Shown: positions 35,914 to 45,125 of the stretch, piece by piece
How positions within the stretch are numbered: position 1 is the first letter of the stretch
Layout: every line of letters begins with the position of its first letter
DNA from: Alphaproteobacteria bacterium
Lineage (GTDB): Bacteria > Pseudomonadota > Alphaproteobacteria > GCA-2731375
Assembly: GCA_965232515.1 (NCBI GenBank)
Contig: CBDDPY010000002.1
Location: 4,928,001-4,992,000 of the forward strand
DNA length: 64,000 bases
Direction of reading: 5' to 3'
Made by a program: the position numbers and the translations under genes
The notes under the pieces: generated by a model
Told to the model about the DNA's origin: nothing
Databases searched by the model: none
The model's input: the letters and a program-made list of their open reading frames with translations, nothing else

Positions 35914-37860
35914 TCAGGTCGCCGATCCGCAGACGCGCAGATCCTCGATCGCTCTTGTCGGCCCGCGCGACCTGGCGCCCGTCGTGATCGGCTTGCTCCC
36001 GGTTTTGACCGATCCGCTGCCAAGCCGGCCCTGATCGGCGAGCTTGGTCGCCTCGTCCATGCGCCCGAGCTTGACCAGCGCCGCGGCCAGTGCCATGCGC
36101 GGCCAGATGTCGGTGTCGGATAACCGCGTCCCCGACGGTCCGGCCGTATCCCGTGCGTCATGCCGGACCGACGGCGAGGTCTGTCGAGACAGGCTCAACG
36201 CCCGGTCGATGTGCCGCACCGCTTCATCTTGCCGCCCCAGCACGGCCTGAATCTGGCCCAGGCTGAGATAGGCCTGCGCGTGGCTGGGCGTTTCCGCGAC
36301 CGCGCGCTCCAGCAGTTCCAGACCGGCCTCGTGGTCGGCGCCGAACGCCATGGCCCCGCCCAGCACCATGACGGGGAACGAGTCCGACGGCTGCAGGTCG
36401 ATCGCCCGCTGCGCCAGCCGGATCGACTGTGCCATCTCCTGGGCGACGTCGCTCGCCAGGTTCAGCGCCACCCGCACCAGATGCACGTAGGCGAGCCCGG
36501 CATAGGGCGCGGCGAAGCCCGGCGCCAGCGTGTTGGCCTGTCGGAAATGCGCTTCCGCCTTGTCGACCTCCTCGCGCGTCAGCCGATAGGCGTGCCGCAT
36601 GCCGTGTTGGAATTGTTCCCAGGCGTCGAGGTTGTCGGCCTGCAGCCGCGGCAGCCGCTCGCGCTGGTGCACGCGGATCTGGGCGTCGATCGTTTCGATG
36701 ATCTCGCCGCTGATATCGTCCAGCAACGCGAAGATGTCGTCGATGTCCCGGTCGTAGCGGTTGGCCCAGAGCTGCTGGCCCGACCGCGGGTCCACCAGGC
36801 GGGCGGTGACGCGGATCCGACCGTCGGCCCGGCGCACGCTGCCCAGGATCACATATGTCGCGCCCAGCTCGGCATGCAGCGCCGTCAGGCCGTCCCCGTC
36901 GTGACCGGTCTCAAACGTCGATTGCCGCGAGAACACGTGATAGTCGCTGATCTTCGACAACTCGACGATCAGGTCCTCGGTGATGCCGACGGCGATATGG
37001 TCCTGGTCGGCGTCGACGGTCAGGCTGTCGAACTGCAGGATCGCGATCCGCGGCTTGGCCGCGAAGGTCGAACTCTCGGCCGCGGCGCCGTTCGTTGCCG
37101 GCGGTTCGCCGGCCATGGCGCCGGTTTTCTGATCGTTGCGCGTATGCCGCCGCGCCTCGTCGAACAGATCCTTGGTCTCGTCTTCCGGCTCGGCGCCCAG
37201 GTGTTCGCGCACGGCGTCGACACAGCTCGCATACTGCTTGATCGCGGCGTTGTGCCGCCCCCGCCGGATCAGCGTCCGGATAATCGCGCGATGCGCCTCC
37301 TCGCAGGCCTCGTCGGCCCGCAGCAGCTGCAGTGCCAGGCTCTCGGCCGCATCGAACGCCGGCTCCGAGCCGGCGATCTCGGAGAGCTTCTCGGCCAGCC
37401 GCTCGGCGACGTTACGCAGCGACTGCCGTTCGATGCGCAGCCAGTCGTCGAAGCTGGCGTCAGCCGCCTTGACGTCACTCAGCAGATCGCCGCGGTAGAG
37501 CAGCGCGGCCCGTGTAAGCGCGTCCTCACCGCCGTCCGTCAGCAGCGACGCAAATTCCTCGACGTCGACCTGCACCGCGTCGGCTTCCAGTCGCAGCTCC
37601 GTCGCCGACGTCCACAGCGCGTCGCCGGCGTCGTGGCTTTCCAGCAGCCGCCGGATGTCGCTCAGCGCCCGGCGCAGGCTACCCGATGACTGCGCGTCGC
37701 CGCGGTCGCTCCACAAGAGGTTGCGCACGGCCTCGCGCCGGATGGTCTTGCCCGGGTTGAACGCCAGCAGCGCGAACAGCATGGCTGTCTTGCGGGTCGG
37801 AAATTCGATCGCAGCGGTGCCGTCGACGGCCAACGGGCCAAGCAGGCGAACGGTCAGCAT
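35914..37860 (-). CDS. SARP-type regulator (wHTH + BTAD + TolB-like + TPR)
   Basis: VRLLGPL, LLWSDR...SLRRALSDIRR, LYRGDLL...FDDWL, EEAHRAII; GITEDLIVELSK, LWANRYDR; TPRs. Confidence 0.88.
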   Translation of the reverse strand: MLTVRLLGPLAVDGTAAIEFPTRKTAMLFALLAFNPGKTIRREAVRNLLWSDRGDAQSSGSLRRALSDIRRLLESHDAGDALWTSATELRLEADAVQVDVEEFASLLTDGGEDALTRAALLYRGDLLSDVKAADASFDDWLRIERQSLRNVAERLAEKLSEIAGSEPAFDAAESLALQLLRADEACEEAHRAIIRTLIRRGRHNAAIKQYASCVDAVREHLGAEPEDETKDLFDEARRHTRNDQKTGAMAGEPPATNGAAAESSTFAAKPRIAILQFDSLTVDADQDHIAVGITEDLIVELSKISDYHVFSRQSTFETGHDGDGLTALHAELGATYVILGSVRRADGRIRVTARLVDPRSGQQLWANRYDRDIDDIFALLDDISGEIIETIDAQIRVHQRERLPRLQADNLDAWEQFQHGMRHAYRLTREEVDKAEAHFRQANTLAPGFAAPYAGLAYVHLVRVALNLASDVAQEMAQSIRLAQRAIDLQPSDSFPVMVLGGAMAFGADHEAGLELLERAVAETPSHAQAYLSLGQIQAVLGRQDEAVRHIDRALSLSRQTSPSVRHDARDTAGPSGTRLSDTDIWPRMALAAALVKLGRMDEATKLADQGRLGSGSVKTGSKPITTGARSRGPTRAIEDLRVCGSAT

Positions 37861-38402
37861 GATCGGTCACCGTGCGTTGCCGTGGCCGGCGGCGATCCGA
37901 TGCTTATCGCGATGGCGTTCCGGATTGGCGGTTTTCGTGTTTTCGCGCATTTGTGCGAACTATCCCCACGGGCGTCGGTTGAGTCCGAGGCCCCGATGCA
38001 GTCTGGACGCGATGCGTGTTTCGCCGATGTCGCGAAACCGTGAAATTGGTTTCAATTGTTTCCGCCCGACCGAAGCGTTCTCGACCGGCCAATCGAAAAA
38101 TTTTTTCCGCCCTGTCGAATTCACGCTCAGGTAACGCCAAGCCGCGCGGCGAAATCACGCGCGCCCCCCATCTTCCGTTTCGGGTCGCGGACGAATCCGT
38201 CTCGCCGGCCCCGAATGCGAACGTTTTGAGGGAGTCGATGCAGCTTTGGTTCTAAGGGTTTCGGACCGACCGGCGGATGCGCGCCCGCGTCCACGCGATC
38301 CGCGCCGCCGACCTGGACCAGCCATGGAACCTCACCGATTCCCACCATCCGGCCCGGCGCCGGATCATCCGACATCGGTTCTGAATTGAAAGGAATGGAA
38401 CA

Positions 38403-39497
38403 ATGTCCACGCTTGGTTTTGCCGAATATCTCTGGCTTGACGGCAGTCAGCCGACACAGCGTATCCGCTCGAAGGCGCGGGTCGTCCAGGTCCCCGAACA
38501 GCCCGACGCGGCCGATTTTCCGGAATGGAGCTTCGACGGCTCGTCGACCGAACAGGCGACCGGCGACGATTCCGATTGCTTCCTGCTGCCCGTGCGCGTC
38601 GCCGCCGACCCGCTGCAGGGGCCGGGCCATTACCTGGTGCTCTGCGAGGTTCTGAACCCCGACGGCACGCCGCATGCGACGAACCAGCGCGCCCGGCTGC
38701 GCCAGGTGCTCGATGCCATCGATCCCGAGGACGCGCCGTGGGTCGGCTTCGAGCAGGAATACACGATCTATCGCGACGGCCGTCCGCTCGGCTTTCCGGC
38801 GAACGGGTTCCCCGGGCCGCAGGGGCCTTACTACTGCGGCGTCGGCGCGGACCGCGCCTTCGGCCGTGACGTGGTGTTGCGCCACGCGCATGCCTGCCTT
38901 GCCGCCGGCTTGCGTTTCTACGGCATCAACGCCGAGGTGATGCCCGGCCAGTGGGAGTTCCAGATCGGCTACCGCGGCATCGAGGACGAAACCGGCGATG
39001 CGCTCGCCATGGCCGACCATCTCTGGATGGCGCGTTACCTGCTGCACCGCGTCGGCGAGGCCGCCGGCGTGATGATCTCGTTCGACAACAAGCCGGTGCA
39101 GGGCGACTGGAACGGCGCCGGCATGCACACGAACTTCTCGACCTCGGCGACCCGCGATCCGCGGCGCGGCTTCGACGCCATTCATCAGGCCGTCGCCAGC
39201 CTGGAAGACAGTCACGAGTTCCATATCGGCTATTACGGCGACCGCCTCTACGAACGGCTGACCGGCCTGCACGAGACCTGCGACATCGACACCTTCAAGT
39301 CGGGTGTCGCGCATCGCGGCGCCTCGATCCGGATCCCGCATCCGGTGGCGATCAAGGGCCACGGTTATCTGGAGGACCGCCGTCCCGGCGCCAACGCCGA
39401 TCCCTATCTCGTCGCCGCCTGCCTGATCGCGACGGTCTGTGACGCCACGCAGGCGTTCCATGCCTTCGACTTGGGCGACCAGGCGGTCGCTGCCTAA
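38403..39497 (+). CDS. glnII: Glutamine synthetase type II
   Basis: EYLWLDG, WSFDGSST, GFEQEY, QGPYYCGVG, NAEVMPGQWEFQ, DWNGAGMHTNFS, RLTGLHET, RGASIRIP, YLEDRRP; 364 aa. Confidence 0.92.
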   Translation: MSTLGFAEYLWLDGSQPTQRIRSKARVVQVPEQPDAADFPEWSFDGSSTEQATGDDSDCFLLPVRVAADPLQGPGHYLVLCEVLNPDGTPHATNQRARLRQVLDAIDPEDAPWVGFEQEYTIYRDGRPLGFPANGFPGPQGPYYCGVGADRAFGRDVVLRHAHACLAAGLRFYGINAEVMPGQWEFQIGYRGIEDETGDALAMADHLWMARYLLHRVGEAAGVMISFDNKPVQGDWNGAGMHTNFSTSATRDPRRGFDAIHQAVASLEDSHEFHIGYYGDRLYERLTGLHETCDIDTFKSGVAHRGASIRIPHPVAIKGHGYLEDRRPGANADPYLVAACLIATVCDATQAFHAFDLGDQAVAA

Positions 39498-39499
39498 GC

Positions 39500-39521
39500 G
39501 CGGCGCCCCATGGGGCGCCGC
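39500..39521. repeat. 22-bp perfect GC palindrome between GS and amt
   Basis: GCGGCGCCCCATGGGGCGCCGC; no U-tract follows. Confidence 0.7.
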
Positions 39522-39538
39522 ATTCATCGGAGAAGAAA

Positions 39539-40837
39539 ATGAAACGCTTCAATCTCGCGATCGGCCTCACGGCGGCATTGGCGTCGCTCTTGGCCGCGCC
39601 GGCCCTGGCGGCGGATCCGACCGCCGCCGAGGTCGGCTTCATCCTCAACAATCTGTTCGTGCTGCTGTGCGGCGCGCTGGTCATGTTCATGGCCGCCGGC
39701 TTCGCCATGCTCGAGGCCGGCACGGTCCGCAGCAAGTCGGTGGCGGCGATCTGCACCAAGAACATTGCGCTTTACGCCATCGCCGGCGTGATGTTCTTCG
39801 CCTCGGGCTATCAGTTGATGTATGGCGACAGCACGGGCGGTCTCTTCGGCACGCTGGGGTTCTGGCAGGCCGACGATAGCGCCATCGCAGCCGGCGACCT
39901 GTCGGCCGGTCTGGCGCCGGCCACCGACTGGTTCTTCCAGATGGTGTTCGTCGCCACCGCCGCCTCGGTGGTCTCGGGCGCGCTCGCCGAGCGGGCCCGT
40001 TTCTGGGGCTTCGCCGCCTTCACCGTTGTGCTGGCCGGTCTGATCTATCCCGTGATCGGGCATTGGACCTGGGGCGGCGGCTGGCTCGCCGAGCTCGGCT
40101 TCGTCGACTTCGCCGGCTCCACGATCGTGCACTCGGTCGGCGGCTGGGCCGCCTTGGCCGGCGCGGTCATCATCGGCGCGCGGCAGGGCCGGTTCGACAA
40201 GAACGGCAAGGCCCGCGTGATGCTGCCGTCGTCGATGCCGCACGTGACGTTGGGCACGTTCATCCTTTGGCTCGGCTGGTTCGGCTTCAACGGCGGCTCG
40301 CAGCTGTCGCTGTCCAGCGTCGACGATGTCGTCGCGGTGGCGCACATCTTCGTCAACACCAACGTCGCCGCCGCGGCGGGCGTGGTGACCATCGCCATTG
40401 CCAGCCAGCTGATGCTGCGGCGTCTCGACCTGCCGCTGATCCTGAACGGCGCGCTTGCCGGCCTGGTCAGCATCACGGCCGAGCCGTTCGCGCCGACGAT
40501 CTGGCAGGCCATGCTGATCGGCGCCGTCGGCGCGCTGGTGATGATGGCGGCCAGCCGTCTGATGGAAGCGCTGTCGATCGACGACGTGGTCGGCGCGGTG
40601 CCGGTGCACCTGGCGGCCGGCATCTGGGGCACGCTCGCCGTGGCGCTCACCAATGCGGACGCCAGCTTCGCCGTCCAGGCAATCGGCGTTGCCGCCGTCG
40701 GCGTCTTCGTCGGCTCGGTTTCGCTGGTCGCGTGGCTCGCGCTCAAGGCGACCGTCGGCATCCGGCTGCGGCGCGCGCACGAAGAAGCGGGCGGGGATAT
40801 CGCCGAGCTCGGTATCCGCGCTTACAACCTGTCATGA
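39539..40837 (+). CDS. amt: Ammonium transporter (Amt family)
   Basis: GFAMLEAG, FQMVF, DFAGSTIVHSVGG, GWFGFNGGS, IDDVVGAVPVH; twin His and Phe gate intact; signal peptide. Confidence 0.93.
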   Translation: MKRFNLAIGLTAALASLLAAPALAADPTAAEVGFILNNLFVLLCGALVMFMAAGFAMLEAGTVRSKSVAAICTKNIALYAIAGVMFFASGYQLMYGDSTGGLFGTLGFWQADDSAIAAGDLSAGLAPATDWFFQMVFVATAASVVSGALAERARFWGFAAFTVVLAGLIYPVIGHWTWGGGWLAELGFVDFAGSTIVHSVGGWAALAGAVIIGARQGRFDKNGKARVMLPSSMPHVTLGTFILWLGWFGFNGGSQLSLSSVDDVVAVAHIFVNTNVAAAAGVVTIAIASQLMLRRLDLPLILNGALAGLVSITAEPFAPTIWQAMLIGAVGALVMMAASRLMEALSIDDVVGAVPVHLAAGIWGTLAVALTNADASFAVQAIGVAAVGVFVGSVSLVAWLALKATVGIRLRRAHEEAGGDIAELGIRAYNLS

Positions 40838-40903
40838 CCTTGACATGACCTTGGTGGGGGCCGGCCGTCGCGCCGGTCCCCATCCTCTTTGGATGATCAG
40901 ACA

Positions 40904-42496
40904 ATGAATGCAAACATCTCGAATATCGTGTTCAAGGCGCTGGACGAGACCGGCGCCGGTGTCGTTCCGGCCAAGGACATCTGGGCGCGACTCGCCCAGG
41001 CCGGCCTGACCCGGGACGACCCCCGGCTGTCGGCGCTGTCCGAGCGCCTGGCGCGGCGGGCGGAGGACGGCGACGGCATGGTCGATGCCGCGTCCTTCGT
41101 CGAACTGGTCCACACCGGCCAAACGCTGTTGGAACGCACGCTGAAGGACGAGCTGGTGATCCCGCAGTTCGCGGACTTTGCCGGACACCTGCAGCGGCTC
41201 TATGACGAGATCAAGCCGCAGACGTCGGGCGAGGTCGCGAACTACATCCCGCAGCTCGCCCGCGTGGCGCCTGAACAGTTCGGCGTCTCGATCTGCACGA
41301 TCGACGGTCAGCGCCTCAACCTCGGCGACTTCGACACCAAGTTCACCTTCCAGTCTGCCTGCAAGCCGTTGCTGTATTGCGGCGCGCTCGAGGCCTGGGG
41401 CGAACAGCATGTACACCGGCATGTCGGCCGCGAGCCGAGCGGCATGTCGTTCAACGAGCTGTCGCTCAACAAGAACGGCCAGCCGCACAATCCGATGATC
41501 AATGCCGGCGGCGTCATGTCAGCCAGCTTCTGGCACCCGGACCTGCCCATGGCCGGCCGCTTCGAGCGATTGAGCGACCTGGTCGCGACACTCTCCGGCG
41601 GCCGCCGCCCCGGTTTCGACAATGCGATCTTCTATTCCGAGCGCGATACCGCCGACCGCAACTTCGCGCTGGCCCATGCCATGCGCGAGACCGGCGCCTT
41701 CCCGGAAGGTACCGATATCTTCCAGACGCTGGACCTCTATTTTTCCGCCTGCTCGATCGAGACCACGGTCGAGCGCATGGCGACGCTTGCCGCCACTTTC
41801 GCCAACGGCGGAATCTGTCCGCCGACTGGCGCGCGGGTGTTCTCCGACGCGACGGTCAAGAACTGCCTGTCGATGATGTATTCCTGCGGCATGTACGACT
41901 ATTCCGGCGAGTTCGCCTTTCGCGTCGGCATGCCGGCGAAGTCGGCCGTGTCCGGCGTGATCTTCGCGGTCGTGCCCAATGTCATGGGCATCGCCGTCTG
42001 GTCGCCACGGCTCGACAGCTACGGCAACAGCGTGCGCGGTGTGTCGTATCTCACCAGGCTGGTCGAGACCTTCAACTTCCACAACTACGACAGCCTGCTG
42101 GATTCGCAGAAGATCGATCCGCGCGTCCGGCGTCAGACCTTCGAGGCCAACGTCACCTTCAGCGCCATCAACGCCGCTAGCCGCGACGACGTCGACGAGC
42201 TGAAGCGGTTGGTTGCCTACGGCCACATGCTTGACAAGGCGGACTATGACGGCCGTACGCCGCTGCACCTGGCGGCGGTGGAAGGTCATATCGCCGCCGT
42301 CCGCTACATCCTGGCGCAGGGCGTCGACCGCACCCCGGTCGACCGGTGGGGCAACACGCCACTCGACGACGCGCGGCAGAACGGCCATGCCCGGATTGCC
42401 GATCTGCTTGCCGGCGCCGACAAGCTGCCCGGCACGGCGGGCAAGGGCGGCAAGGCCGAGGCCGACACTGCCAAGAAGGGCCGCAAGGCCGCCTGA
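40904..42496 (+). CDS. glsA: Glutaminase A with EF-hand-like N-terminus and C-terminal ankyrin repeats
   Basis: GEVANYIPQLA, FQSACKP (SxxK), GREPSG, PHNPMINAG, SCGMYDYSG, PAKSAVSG; ANK DYDGRTPLHLAA and DRWGNTPLDDA; N-terminal GLTRDDPRL. Confidence 0.92.
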   Translation: MNANISNIVFKALDETGAGVVPAKDIWARLAQAGLTRDDPRLSALSERLARRAEDGDGMVDAASFVELVHTGQTLLERTLKDELVIPQFADFAGHLQRLYDEIKPQTSGEVANYIPQLARVAPEQFGVSICTIDGQRLNLGDFDTKFTFQSACKPLLYCGALEAWGEQHVHRHVGREPSGMSFNELSLNKNGQPHNPMINAGGVMSASFWHPDLPMAGRFERLSDLVATLSGGRRPGFDNAIFYSERDTADRNFALAHAMRETGAFPEGTDIFQTLDLYFSACSIETTVERMATLAATFANGGICPPTGARVFSDATVKNCLSMMYSCGMYDYSGEFAFRVGMPAKSAVSGVIFAVVPNVMGIAVWSPRLDSYGNSVRGVSYLTRLVETFNFHNYDSLLDSQKIDPRVRRQTFEANVTFSAINAASRDDVDELKRLVAYGHMLDKADYDGRTPLHLAAVEGHIAAVRYILAQGVDRTPVDRWGNTPLDDARQNGHARIADLLAGADKLPGTAGKGGKAEADTAKKGRKAA

Positions 42497-42526
42497 CGAT
42501 GCGCGGCCAACGACGGGCGCTGGCGC

Positions 42527-43393
42527 CTAGTCGTTGGCCGCCATCATCACCGTGCGCCGCGCACGTCCGCGCGTTTCGACTTGCCAGATTCGATCCTCGA
42601 TCAATTCGCCGATCAGTTCACCGTGGGTGACCGGCGCCATGTGCCCGACATCCGGGATCTCCTCATGGCGGGCCGTGGGAATGTTTTCGACCACGATCTC
42701 CGCCACGCGGCGCGTCACCGCCGGTGATTTCTCGCCTGACAGCATCAATGTGGGGCAGGTGATGCCTTGGCATCGGCTCGCGACCCAGGTCTCGGACAGG
42801 CCCGCCGCGAAGTCGTGCACGACCTGTCCGGCCTGGCGTGTCAGCAGGTCGCGCACTTCGGACGGTGTCCGCGCCCAGGCGCCGTCACCGTTCCAGAAGT
42901 CGATGAACTGACTCATGCCCGCTTCCGGCACGCGGCCGGCGACGGCCTCGGCCAGCCGGCGTCCCACCAGGTCGATCTGGCGCAGCAGCGCCCGGTCGCG
43001 GCGGCCGCCCTCGCGCAGCAGATGCACCAGCACCGGCTCGTACAGCACCAGGCTGCGCACCAGATCCGGCCGCATCAGCGCAATCTTGACCGCCACGGCG
43101 GCGCCGTAGGAGTGCCCGACCAGATGCACCGGTCCCGGCCGCCGCGCGATCAGAACCGCGATCGGCGCGGCGACATCGGCCAGCCCCTGCCGGCCCGACC
43201 GCGACAGGGCATTGGACTGCCCGTAGCCCGGCAGATCGGGCGCGGTCACGCAATGCCGGCCCGTCATCCGTGCCGTCAGCGCCCGCCATTGAACGGACGA
43301 GGATGCTGAAGCGTGGAGCGCGACCACAGGGCTGCCGTAGCCCGTGCAGTCGAACGCGATAGCCGTGCTGCCGGTGTCGGTATTGAACATCAT
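42527..43393 (-). CDS. Alpha/beta fold hydrolase
   Basis: LHASASS, PDLPGYG, GHSYG nucleophile elbow, GHMAPVTH. Confidence 0.9.
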   Translation of the reverse strand: MMFNTDTGSTAIAFDCTGYGSPVVALHASASSSVQWRALTARMTGRHCVTAPDLPGYGQSNALSRSGRQGLADVAAPIAVLIARRPGPVHLVGHSYGAAVAVKIALMRPDLVRSLVLYEPVLVHLLREGGRRDRALLRQIDLVGRRLAEAVAGRVPEAGMSQFIDFWNGDGAWARTPSEVRDLLTRQAGQVVHDFAAGLSETWVASRCQGITCPTLMLSGEKSPAVTRRVAEIVVENIPTARHEEIPDVGHMAPVTHGELIGELIEDRIWQVETRGRARRTVMMAAND

Positions 43394-43580
43394 GATGGGC
43401 CTCCGTTACTGGCCGGTCGTCGTGTGATGGATCACCGCGGGATCTGCGGGAACGCGTCATATCGGTGTAACGCGGCAACCGACCGGCCGCTTGGAAGGCA
43501 TTTGGAGATTTTCTGTAGAATTCTTACAGTCGCGTCATGGTGGCATTGGCCAATCCGCGAGAACGCGTTGCGAGGCGGCG

Positions 43581-45125
43581 ATGATTTACCGCTTCGCCGA
43601 CCGCGCGCTTGACACCGACCGCTGCGAGATCCGGCACGGCGAGGAGGTGCGCGCGGTCGAGCCGCAGGTTTTCGACCTGCTCTGTTATCTGATCGAAAAC
43701 CGCGCGCGCATCGTCAGCAAGGACGAGATCTTCGAGAGCGTCTGGCAGGGGCGGCTGGTGTCGGAGTCAACGCTCAGCAGCCGGGTCAAGGACGCCCGGC
43801 AGGCGATTGGCGACAGCGGCCGCGCGCAGAACCTGATCCGTACGATCCACAAGAAGGGTTTCCGCTTCGTCGCCGATGTCGTCGTCGACGCCGGGTCGGC
43901 GAGCGGTGCGACGGAGATCGCCGCGTCGCCGGCCCCGCGCGAGCACCCGTCCGTCGCGGTCTTGCCGTTCGACGATCTCTCTGCCGACCGCGATCAGGAA
44001 CATCTGGCCGATGGTCTGGTCCAGGACGTCACCATGCTGCTGGCCCGGGTGCCCGGCTTTTTCGTCATCGCCCGCAACTCGACCTTCGCCTACAAGGGGC
44101 GGCCGGTCGATGTTCGCACGGTCGCCCGCGATCTCGGCGTCCGCTACATCGTCGAAGGCAGCGTGCGCGCGGCGGGCGACAGGATCCGCGTCGCCGCCGA
44201 GTTGATCGAGGGTGCGACCGGCACGCATCTCTGGGCCGACAGCTTCGATCGCCAGCGCGCCGATCTCTTTGCCGTACAGGACGAGGTCGCCCAGGGCATT
44301 GTCGGCGCGCTGCAGCCGCAGTTGATCCTGGCCGAGGCCGCGCTGGCGCGTGGCCAGACGCCCGACAGTGTCGATGCCTGGGGCTACGCCGCGCATGCCT
44401 GGGTAACGCTGTTCGGCATGGGCCGCGCCGACACCGACCGGGCCGAGCCGTTGGCGCGCCGGGCAGTCGATCTCGATCCCGACTATGGCTTCGGGCACGC
44501 CGTGCTTGCGCAGGTGCTGTCCTGGCGGTCCTACAACGGTTGGACCGAGGACTGGTACGCCGACGCCAAAGAGGCGATCGTGGCCTCGGAACGCGCCATG
44601 GCGCTCGCCCGCAACGATCCCAACGTGGTGCTGTCGCGCGGCATGGCGCTGCACTATATGGGCCTGTTCCTGAAGGCGCATCCGGTGCTGCGGCGCGCCG
44701 TCGAGCTCAATCCCAACGCGGCGATGGCCTGCTCGTTGCTGGGCCACAGCCACGCCATTCTCGGAGAGCCGGCAGAGGGCATTCCGCTCATCGAGCGCGC
44801 ATTTCGCCTGAGCCCACGCGATCCCATGGCGTTTCTGTTCCACTGCCATCTGTCGCACGGGCATTTCTTTTCCGGCCGGTTCGAGGAAGCGCGGCAGCAC
44901 GCCGAGACGTGCCTGCAACTCGCGCCCGGCAGCATCGAGGGTCATCTCTACCTGGCCGCCGCCCTGGTCCGGCTCGATTGCGAGGACGCGGCGCGGCGCG
45001 AGATCGCCCGCATCGAGACCAATTCGCCGACGGCCGCCCTGAAGCACGTGTTCCGCCCCCGCACCGAGGGCACGCTGTGGGGCAACTACACCGACGCCCT
45101 GCGCCGGGCCGGGCTGGAGCCGTAG
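43581..45125 (+). CDS. CadC/OmpR-type wHTH + TolB-like + TPR transcriptional regulator
   Basis: EPQVFDLL, VSKDEI...VWQGRLVSESTL, IRTIHKKGFRF; PSVAVLPF, VIARNSTF; TPRs. Confidence 0.9.
   Translation: MIYRFADRALDTDRCEIRHGEEVRAVEPQVFDLLCYLIENRARIVSKDEIFESVWQGRLVSESTLSSRVKDARQAIGDSGRAQNLIRTIHKKGFRFVADVVVDAGSASGATEIAASPAPREHPSVAVLPFDDLSADRDQEHLADGLVQDVTMLLARVPGFFVIARNSTFAYKGRPVDVRTVARDLGVRYIVEGSVRAAGDRIRVAAELIEGATGTHLWADSFDRQRADLFAVQDEVAQGIVGALQPQLILAEAALARGQTPDSVDAWGYAAHAWVTLFGMGRADTDRAEPLARRAVDLDPDYGFGHAVLAQVLSWRSYNGWTEDWYADAKEAIVASERAMALARNDPNVVLSRGMALHYMGLFLKAHPVLRRAVELNPNAAMACSLLGHSHAILGEPAEGIPLIERAFRLSPRDPMAFLFHCHLSHGHFFSGRFEEARQHAETCLQLAPGSIEGHLYLAAALVRLDCEDAARREIARIETNSPTAALKHVFRPRTEGTLWGNYTDALRRAGLEP

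Follow-up and report, generated by a model that had tools for sequence, protein, structure and literature searches.

The 64-kb stretch of DNA analysed here, hereafter the window (C2:4928001-4992000, ~67% G+C), belongs to an alphaproteobacterial genome of 7.39 Mb in 4 contigs. It carries three adjacent genes coding for a type II glutamine synthetase (GS), an Amt ammonium channel and a three-domain glutaminase. The linkage of GS, Amt and a glutaminase of this build is recurrent, and the GS involved can be of any type. Tentatively, and with somewhat less than even confidence, we read the cluster as a conserved nitrogen module that would join ammonium capture to a return valve from glutamine to glutamate, under regulators of its own. 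The original prediction for this DNA had ranked it as the best candidate for a new system in the window; the arrangement is indeed new and recurrent, but the claim was overstated, as the enzyme families are known. Known enzymes are combined here in a way of organising nitrogen-assimilation genes that is new and recurs, and the function of which we infer.

Gene organisation

The GS gene (38403-39497, 364 aa), the Amt gene (39539-40837, 432 aa) and the glutaminase gene (40904-42496) all lie on the + strand. The first two were assigned with Pfam and NCBIfam, the third with Pfam, TIGR03814 and an alignment to human KGA. The longest open reading frame (ORF) of the glutaminase begins at a TTG (40889), but ATG 40904 is most likely the start, as an alignment of 17 homologues shows an almost invariant N-terminal Met at this position. 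The gap between GS and Amt is 41 bp and that between Amt and glutaminase 66 bp from this ATG, or 51 bp from the TTG. Third-position G+C of the three ORFs is 0.85-0.92. The cluster is a bounded unit, as the genes on either side, coding for a BTAD/TPR regulator and an alpha/beta hydrolase, are read from the other strand. The ORF list and the alignments agree with the prediction of three same-strand genes with gaps of 41 and 66 bp and catalytic residues present.

Conservation of the cluster

Conservation was assessed by two scans started from different proteins. In the first, an alignment of the glutaminase was run against one genome per GTDB species, and the neighbours of the best 80 of 568 confirmed loci were identified by tblastn, ORF clustering and Pfam scans of cluster representatives. 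A GS gene is present in the flank at 43 of these 80 loci, being of type II at 32 (30 co-directional and 2 divergent), of type III at 9 and of type I at 2. An Amt gene is found at 28 loci, with one more cut at a contig end (L088), and all three genes occur together at 27. By title, the linked loci come from Pseudomonadota, Planctomycetota, Gemmatimonadota, Myxococcota, Bacteroidota and Ignavibacteriota. The synteny thus recurs across six phyla and is not unique to this genome, which removes one objection raised along with the original prediction. Its recurrence in many lineages indicates that chance does not account for the arrangement.

At least five gene orders were seen. The order of the window, GSII-Amt-glutaminase, is found in Pseudomonadota metagenome-assembled genomes (MAGs), Planctomycetota, Gemmatimonadota and a Rickettsiales MAG. 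Amt-GSII-glutaminase occurs at L032, Amt-P-II-glutaminase-GSII in Nannocystis (L028, L036, L042) and at L021, Amt-GSIII-glutaminase in Myxococcota, and a kinase-regulator-GSIII-glutaminase-Amt array in a Kapaibacterium MAG and two alphaproteobacterial MAGs. GSII-glutaminase is the order at 11 loci, including the closest relative, L014, whose glutaminase is 74% identical to that of the window. At L091, the order is glnB-glutaminase-glnA. The module Amts fall into two clades that are only ~30% identical to each other, with the channel residues invariant in both. At five loci of the GSII-Amt-glutaminase order (L016, L018, L019, L020, L092), the Amt ORF ends between -6 and +25 bp from the start of the glutaminase alignment. 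The partners are thus interchangeable in GS type, Amt clade and order, which argues for a functional link rather than shared history.

In a phylogeny of 81 glutaminases (FastTree only, with local supports), a minimum of 15 changes of the GS-linked label is required; shuffling the labels raised this to a mean of ~27, and none of 500 shuffles gave a value as low. One clade of 13 rows, 12 of them GSII-linked, mixes Planctomycetota, Gemmatimonadota and a gammaproteobacterial MAG, which suggests that the gene set may move between phyla.

The second scan was seeded with the synthetase and run on metagenome contigs, of which the best 80 of 578 confirmed loci were retained. A glutaminase lies beside GS at 22 of the 80, an Amt at 21 and both at 16. 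For the 44 loci that extend 3 kb or more downstream, these numbers are 14, 13 and 12. When the neighbours were grouped by clustering, the glutaminase (23 loci) and Amt (21) were the commonest, followed by a type II/IV secretion ATPase (10), which looks like the local context of one lineage.

Two generalisations about the linked loci were rejected. The partner GS is not always of a type other than I, given that L054 and L091 carry type I enzymes 68-69% identical to the GlnA of the window's genome. Nor do module Amts always lack a GlnK, as a P-II gene lies between Amt and glutaminase in L021, L028, L036, L042 and L057. At L091 (1487-5117, a Parvularculaceae MAG), the three-domain glutaminase is found within the most canonical of nitrogen operons, with glnB (P-II) on one side and glnA (type I GS) on the other, and at L065 a P-II gene immediately precedes the glutaminase.

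Encoded proteins

The GS harbors the domains PF03951 (Gln-synt_N, 48.7 bits) and PF00120 (Gln-synt_C, 56 bits), both above cut-off. It scores 437.6 bits against the NCBIfam model of GlnII (NF041605), under the equivalog cut-off of 500, and its close homologues carry only the generic NCBI name "glutamine synthetase beta-grasp domain-containing protein". This subfamily is marked by a 7-residue insertion (QIGYRG...D.L) absent from 4bax and from eukaryotic GS. Among solved structures, the protein matches the bacterial GSII 4bax at 361.8 bits and human, plant and yeast GS at 338-359 bits, and it is similar in sequence to the solved decamers 4bax, 2ojw and 2d3a. Residues D58, E117, E119, E178, E185, H242, R305, R310, E324 and R326 do not vary across an alignment of 35 sequences; from GS structures, we take them to be the ligands of metal, ATP and glutamate, together with the Asp of the site for ammonium. 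The enzyme therefore looks active, as judged from its sequence. The 7-residue insertion was considered as a requirement for linkage and rejected, as linked Nannocystis-type loci lack it and the unlinked L098 has it.

The Amt protein matches PF00909 (Ammonium_transp) at 325.6 bits over profile positions 2-399 of 399, and the "marine subtype" model TIGR03644 at 513.1 bits, for a cut-off of 514. The twin His H198/H357 and the residues W178, D190 and S254 are kept without exception in 25 module Amts, which represent both clades; by analogy with E. coli AmtB, the former presumably line the pore and the latter form the recruitment site. Among solved structures, 8qj3, 8qpf and 6eu6 come nearest (265-227 bits), with about twice the score of E. 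coli AmtB (134 bits); 8qj3 and 8qpf are the Amt parts of proteins of 644-661 aa. All three are reportedly sensor-type Amt proteins, but the structure table calls them only "Ammonium transporter". The module Amt has no extra cytoplasmic domain and is a paralogue of the glnK-linked Amt of the same genome, with 58% identity, for which reasons it was read as a channel.

The glutaminase combines PF17959 (EF-hand_14), PF04960 (Glutaminase, 351.4 bits) and PF12796 (Ank), and passes TIGR03814 (glutaminase A) with 298.6 bits for a cut-off of 255.4. Human KGA (5uqe, E 4.4e-137) can be aligned over residues 13-507 of the window protein, and the liver-type GLS2 matches it just as well; the alignments to 5uqe, 8szl and 8gwr span ~500 residues. 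Positions S156, K159, Y119, N205, E251, N258, Y284 and Y336, which we take to be the catalytic positions of the human enzyme, are all present, human numbering being at a constant offset of 130, and the Ser-x-x-Lys pair S156/K159 is invariant in the homologue alignment. On this basis, the glutaminase looks active. At human activation-loop position 320, the window protein has Glu where the human one has Lys.

This three-domain glutaminase is widespread, with 6385 matches among 8000 scored candidates. Almost all of the best 120 share the domain set, and these include Alpha- and Gammaproteobacteria, Nannocystis, Thiodiazotropha and, at 42-47% identity, eukaryotes. The same build is found in glutaminases without adjacent GS or Amt and in human KGA and GLS2, so the ankyrin repeats are not special to the module. 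Five glutaminase-core matches in genomes of the window's class (G110:C1:287819, G165:C6:22944, G370:C13:91956, G193:C22:4564 and G045:C5:47843) lie in frames of 615-657 aa without the EF-hand and ankyrin regions of the window protein, and probably carry other added domains.

Nitrogen genes elsewhere in the genome

The genome keeps the full canonical nitrogen set, namely glnB-glnA, two other Amt genes, each adjoining a P-II gene, the GOGAT large subunit and GlnE, so that the module appears as an addition on top of it. A second, single-domain glutaminase is also present, as are two further GS-like genes. No P-II/GlnK gene lies beside the module Amt: the four P-II matches of the genome are at 0.15, 1.51, 2.02 and 4.27 Mb of C2, and the module is at 4.97 Mb. 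This agrees with the prediction of an Amt that is not paired with glnK.

Expression and regulation

The 542-bp intergenic region upstream of GS (37861-38402) probably holds the promoter and leader. It contains two pairs of direct repeats, 38054-38074/38099-38119 (21 nt, 81% identity, 45 nt apart) and 38116-38126/38150-38160 (11 nt, 91% identity, 34 nt apart), which could be binding sites for the neighbouring OmpR/BTAD-type regulators. TCACG words related to these repeats also occur upstream in L014; the upstream regions of the window, L014 and L098 gave no useful alignment. A consensus scan found no sigma-54 -24/-12 site (TGGCAC-N5-TTGCW, up to 3 mismatches) on the + strand of 37861-38402, and the same kind of scan found no sigma-70-like site upstream of GS. 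Expression of the module does not look sigma-54/NtrC dependent. The 471-nt leader has an unremarkable fold (z -2.28), and an Rfam scan of 37700-42800 with E up to 1 returned no family, apart from two chance miRNA-like matches inside genes.

GC-rich hairpins without a T tract are predicted on the + strand in both spacers, at 39500-39521 between GS and Amt (-21.8 kcal/mol, z -2.95) and at 40853-40884 between Amt and glutaminase (-30.5 kcal/mol and z -2.48 for the fold of 40835-40906).

Of 24 sequence runs listed for the stretch, four were compared with it. In the RNA library of run X4, 19 contig pieces with 90-99% identity cover 27 of 30 bins at a depth of ~5-6 on all three genes. Coverage begins near 37946, and the depth is 0.34 at 37800-37966 and 0 at 42643-42800, i.e. 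in the flanking genes. The GS-Amt junction is bridged across the spacer hairpin by record 3 of X4 (39313-40053) and record 10 of run X6 (38334-39953). These contigs give partial support for co-expression and leave room for attenuation before the glutaminase. PolyA RNA-seq raw reads of runs X21 and X24 were rejected as module transcripts, as only two short conserved stretches of the synthetase gene, 38922-38969 and 39269-39300, were matched, at 90-95% and with loose ends beyond which the reads differ; we read them as the type II GS mRNA of another organism. The two runs share the organism label of the DNA data set that best matches the stretch.

Regulators recur around the module in other genomes: a NarL/LuxR-type response regulator is present at 23 loci, and 11 have a kinase that combines a PilJ-N sensor like that of NarX with PAS and HisKA_3 domains. 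In the window, the candidate module regulator is a protein with an OmpR-type winged-helix DNA-binding domain and TPR repeats and no receiver domain (43491-45125, + strand), assigned by Pfam and neighbourhood; its homologues adjoin the module in L016, L080 and L092, loci with the Amts closest to that of the window. A second candidate is the divergent BTAD/TPR protein (35914-37860, - strand, assigned by Pfam), encoded 542 bp upstream of GS, with weaker homologues near the module at the same three loci. Neighbourhood is the basis on which both may be assigned a role in regulating the module.

Proposed function and alternative explanations

In the mechanism that we propose, Amt and the type II GS would capture ammonium into glutamine, and the human-type glutaminase would turn surplus glutamine back into glutamate and ammonium. 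The set would thereby include a way back that works as a relief valve or push-pull pair, and could hold the glutamine:glutamate ratio when the supply of ammonium jumps, the ATP cost being paid only at overflow. Expression would probably be driven by module-specific regulators; these would be winged-helix/TPR proteins in this genome, whereas other phyla would use response regulators of the NarL type together with NarX-like kinases. The mechanism fits the glutamine cycle described in Rhizobium etli and Neurospora, and also the reported depletion of glutamate in enteric mutants that are unable to adenylylate GS when ammonium is shifted up. The direction of net flux, the simultaneous activity of both enzymes, the valve role and the identity of the regulators are the parts of this mechanism that we infer.

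Several observations weigh against it. The glutaminase has no GS beside it at 37 of the 80 loci of the first scan, and about two thirds of the well-flanked loci of the synthetase subfamily lack the glutaminase. Both scans retained the best matches to the window proteins and not a random set, and the related genomes among them are not independent. Nor is the link universal: of 401 evenly sampled genomes from the class to which the window belongs, 5 have the three-domain glutaminase, and the other 4 have no adjacent GS or Amt, two of these being on contigs shorter than 4.1 kb. Type II GS is found in 8 of the 401; one that is 72% identical stands alone. Another lies 1.6 kb from a convergent glutaminase match that lacks the ankyrin region and contains a single TGA. 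The two linked loci with type I GS and the five with P-II between Amt and glutaminase also count on this side, and show that the module is not simply a substitute for adenylylation or GlnK control. The RNA evidence consists of assembled contigs of related strains and proves neither transcription nor a single transcript. None of the listed RNA contigs crosses the Amt-glutaminase junction, depth in X6 falls from 16-18 to 1-4 on the glutaminase, i.e. about five-fold, and stable hairpins occupy both spacers. Of the original prediction, the bounded same-strand unit with intact enzymes, the Amt without an adjacent P-II gene and the conserved synteny are supported, and a cycling or buffering module in which both enzymes run at once is possible. 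Finally, the valve role is reasoned from textbook enzymology.

A possible, although less probable, explanation is an alternating switch: one regulator would control both directions, with the enzymes active at different times and no cycle, either for assimilation (GS and Amt) or for glutamine use (glutaminase, with Amt venting or recapturing ammonia), under reciprocal allosteric or post-translational control. It accounts for the conserved synteny in the same way as the return valve, the spacer hairpins and lower glutaminase depth in X6 allow uneven expression, and the EF-hand-like and ankyrin domains give room for regulation. However, contigs of each of the three genes occur together in the RNA libraries X4 and X6, and their depth in X4 is similar; moreover, the near-abutting Amt and glutaminase genes of relatives suggest joint production. 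This switch is hard to tell from a return valve.

A bolder form of the return-valve proposal, which we consider rather unlikely, is a "glutamine homeostat" moving between phyla, in which GS and glutaminase would run simultaneously as a continuous, ATP-spending push-pull pair with its own channel, the glutaminase doing the job of GS adenylylation and GlnK. If true, both the glutamine:glutamate ratio and the internal ammonium level would be controlled quickly and robustly. The module joins exactly the two enzyme types found in eukaryotes, type II GS and the EF-hand/ankyrin glutaminase, and a cluster of this kind may thus have been the source from which eukaryotes acquired both at once.

It is unlikely that the module serves ammonia or pH handling or the feeding of a partner. 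Ammonia from the glutaminase would then leave via Amt or buffer protons while GS rebuilds the glutamine store, the output being controlled ammonium release or pH homeostasis. The absence of an adjacent GlnK to plug the Amt fits this idea, as does the existence of glutaminase-based acid resistance in E. coli. On the other hand, no acid-resistance-type amino-acid antiporter or decarboxylase was found among the recurrent neighbours, and assimilation is suggested by GS being the partner that varies least in its presence. Marine, coral and marine-sediment labels are attached to runs with small word shares, and were not counted as evidence.

We consider it very improbable that the pair handles another amine, with the GS-like protein making a gamma-glutamyl amide and the "glutaminase" hydrolysing it. 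The score under the GlnII cut-off (437.6 vs 500) and the generically named, insertion-bearing subfamily would allow a different substrate. Against this, the ligand columns and the ammonium-site Asp are invariant, the GS is as near to solved true GSII enzymes as those are to each other, and the glutaminase exceeds the glutaminase A cut-off with every human GLS catalytic residue kept. Moreover, type III and type I GS replace type II elsewhere, and the third partner is an ammonium channel.

Slightly less probable still is a physical metabolon, in which the ankyrin or EF-hand-like domain of the glutaminase would bind either GS or, taking the position of GlnK, Amt, so that ammonia is channelled between the active sites and the pore. 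The glutaminase does occupy the slot directly after Amt, nearly abutting it in five relatives, as in amtB-glnK, and ankyrin repeats are generally known as protein-binding modules. Yet the complex through ankyrin repeats suggested by the original prediction found no support; stand-alone and human glutaminases have the same build. The partners are also swapped across the fold classes of GS II, III and I and two distant Amt clades, the closest relative has no Amt, and five loci keep GlnK between Amt and glutaminase. A complex prediction for Amt with the full-length glutaminase scored 0.00 in two runs in which the controls were not folded, and is evidence neither way.

That the adjacency is a historical accident of descent or hitch-hiking is hardly credible: many carriers of each gene lack the partner and sampling was biased to relatives of the window proteins, but the link spans six phyla, different orders, three GS types and two Amt clades, and was recovered from two collections with two seed proteins.

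Comparison with known systems and significance

Textbook bacterial nitrogen control relies on GS type I with adenylylation, P-II proteins and an Amt plugged by GlnK, and glutaminase is usually treated as a catabolic or acid-resistance side enzyme. The cluster resembles the amtB-glnK operon, of which the genome has two pairs, in that an Amt gene is closely followed by one for a cytoplasmic protein of nitrogen metabolism, but here the glutaminase fills the downstream slot and no P-II gene is adjacent. Bacterial glnII of rhizobia and Streptomyces (4bax) codes for a protein of the same fold family and of ~350 aa, with the catalytic ligands present; in rhizobia it is monocistronic and NtrC-dependent. 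The module GS differs in scoring under the GlnII cut-off, in its 7-residue insertion, in being co-encoded with Amt and glutaminase and in having no sigma-54-type promoter that our consensus scan could find.

Glutaminase is also co-encoded with a transporter of the same pathway in B. subtilis glsA-glnT and E. coli YbaS/GadC. There, however, a single-domain glutaminase is associated with a glutamine or glutamate carrier and is not known to be joined by a GS, whereas the module has an ammonium channel and GS as its main partner. Simultaneous synthesis and hydrolysis of glutamine, as proposed for the module, reportedly take place in Rhizobium etli and Neurospora crassa, where a physiological "glutamine cycle" was proposed. 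In those organisms, the enzymes are reportedly encoded apart and the glutaminases are single-domain, in contrast to one cluster with a channel. Human KGA/GLS and GLS2 share the three-domain build and identical catalytic residues with the window glutaminase, which differs in being bacterial, lacking a mitochondrial presequence region and adjoining GS and Amt.

Full-text literature searches gave no paper describing a GS-Amt-glutaminase cluster, in line with the statement in the original prediction that the arrangement was not known to be characterised; these searches did not extend to Pasquali 2017, which possibly bears on novelty. In the portions consulted, PMC6863919 does not mention glutaminase, PMC3412718 contains no such cluster, and the "glutaminase" of PMC7646526 is a NadE domain. 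According to excerpts of PMC13142944, ankyrin repeats were acquired early in glutaminase evolution, a point for which it cites Pasquali 2017, and single-domain bacterial glutaminases have neither phosphate activation nor filament formation.

The recurrent cluster implies that many bacteria link glutamine synthesis and hydrolysis genetically. The old and mostly physiological idea of a bacterial "glutamine cycle" thereby becomes testable through knock-outs and 15N flux in cultured carriers, e.g. Nannocystis (L028, L036, L042). As human glutaminases are drug targets, it is also of interest that their regulatory domains could be modelled on bacterial proteins of this cluster, which further gives annotators a context for a GSII subfamily named only generically by NCBI.

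Other neighbouring genes

The convergent alpha/beta hydrolase gene of the window (42527-43393, - strand) lies 30 bp downstream of the glutaminase. In Sphingomonadales loci, the position directly 3' of the glutaminase is taken by a protein of ~530 aa, with an alpha/beta-hydrolase domain and a long N-terminal region without Pfam match that is regulator-like by eye (L068:7560-9158, L070, L072, L073, L078, L081). It is also found 5' of the synthetase in 5 metagenome loci (e.g. L110:3082-4677). The separate hydrolase and winged-helix/TPR (43491-45125) genes of the window occupy the same place, and a 46%-identical fused copy is present elsewhere in the genome.

A small ORF of ~140-205 aa, the representative of which has no Pfam match, was found at 8 loci (L035:7434-7973, L074:7484-7954, L083:3607-4077, L084:7464-7883, L047:2791-3219, L057, L060 and L075). 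It is directly 3' of the glutaminase in Gemmatimonadota, Saprospiraceae and Myxococcota loci, and at three loci lies nearby. A weak homologue is present elsewhere in the window's genome (C2:5561213-5561611).

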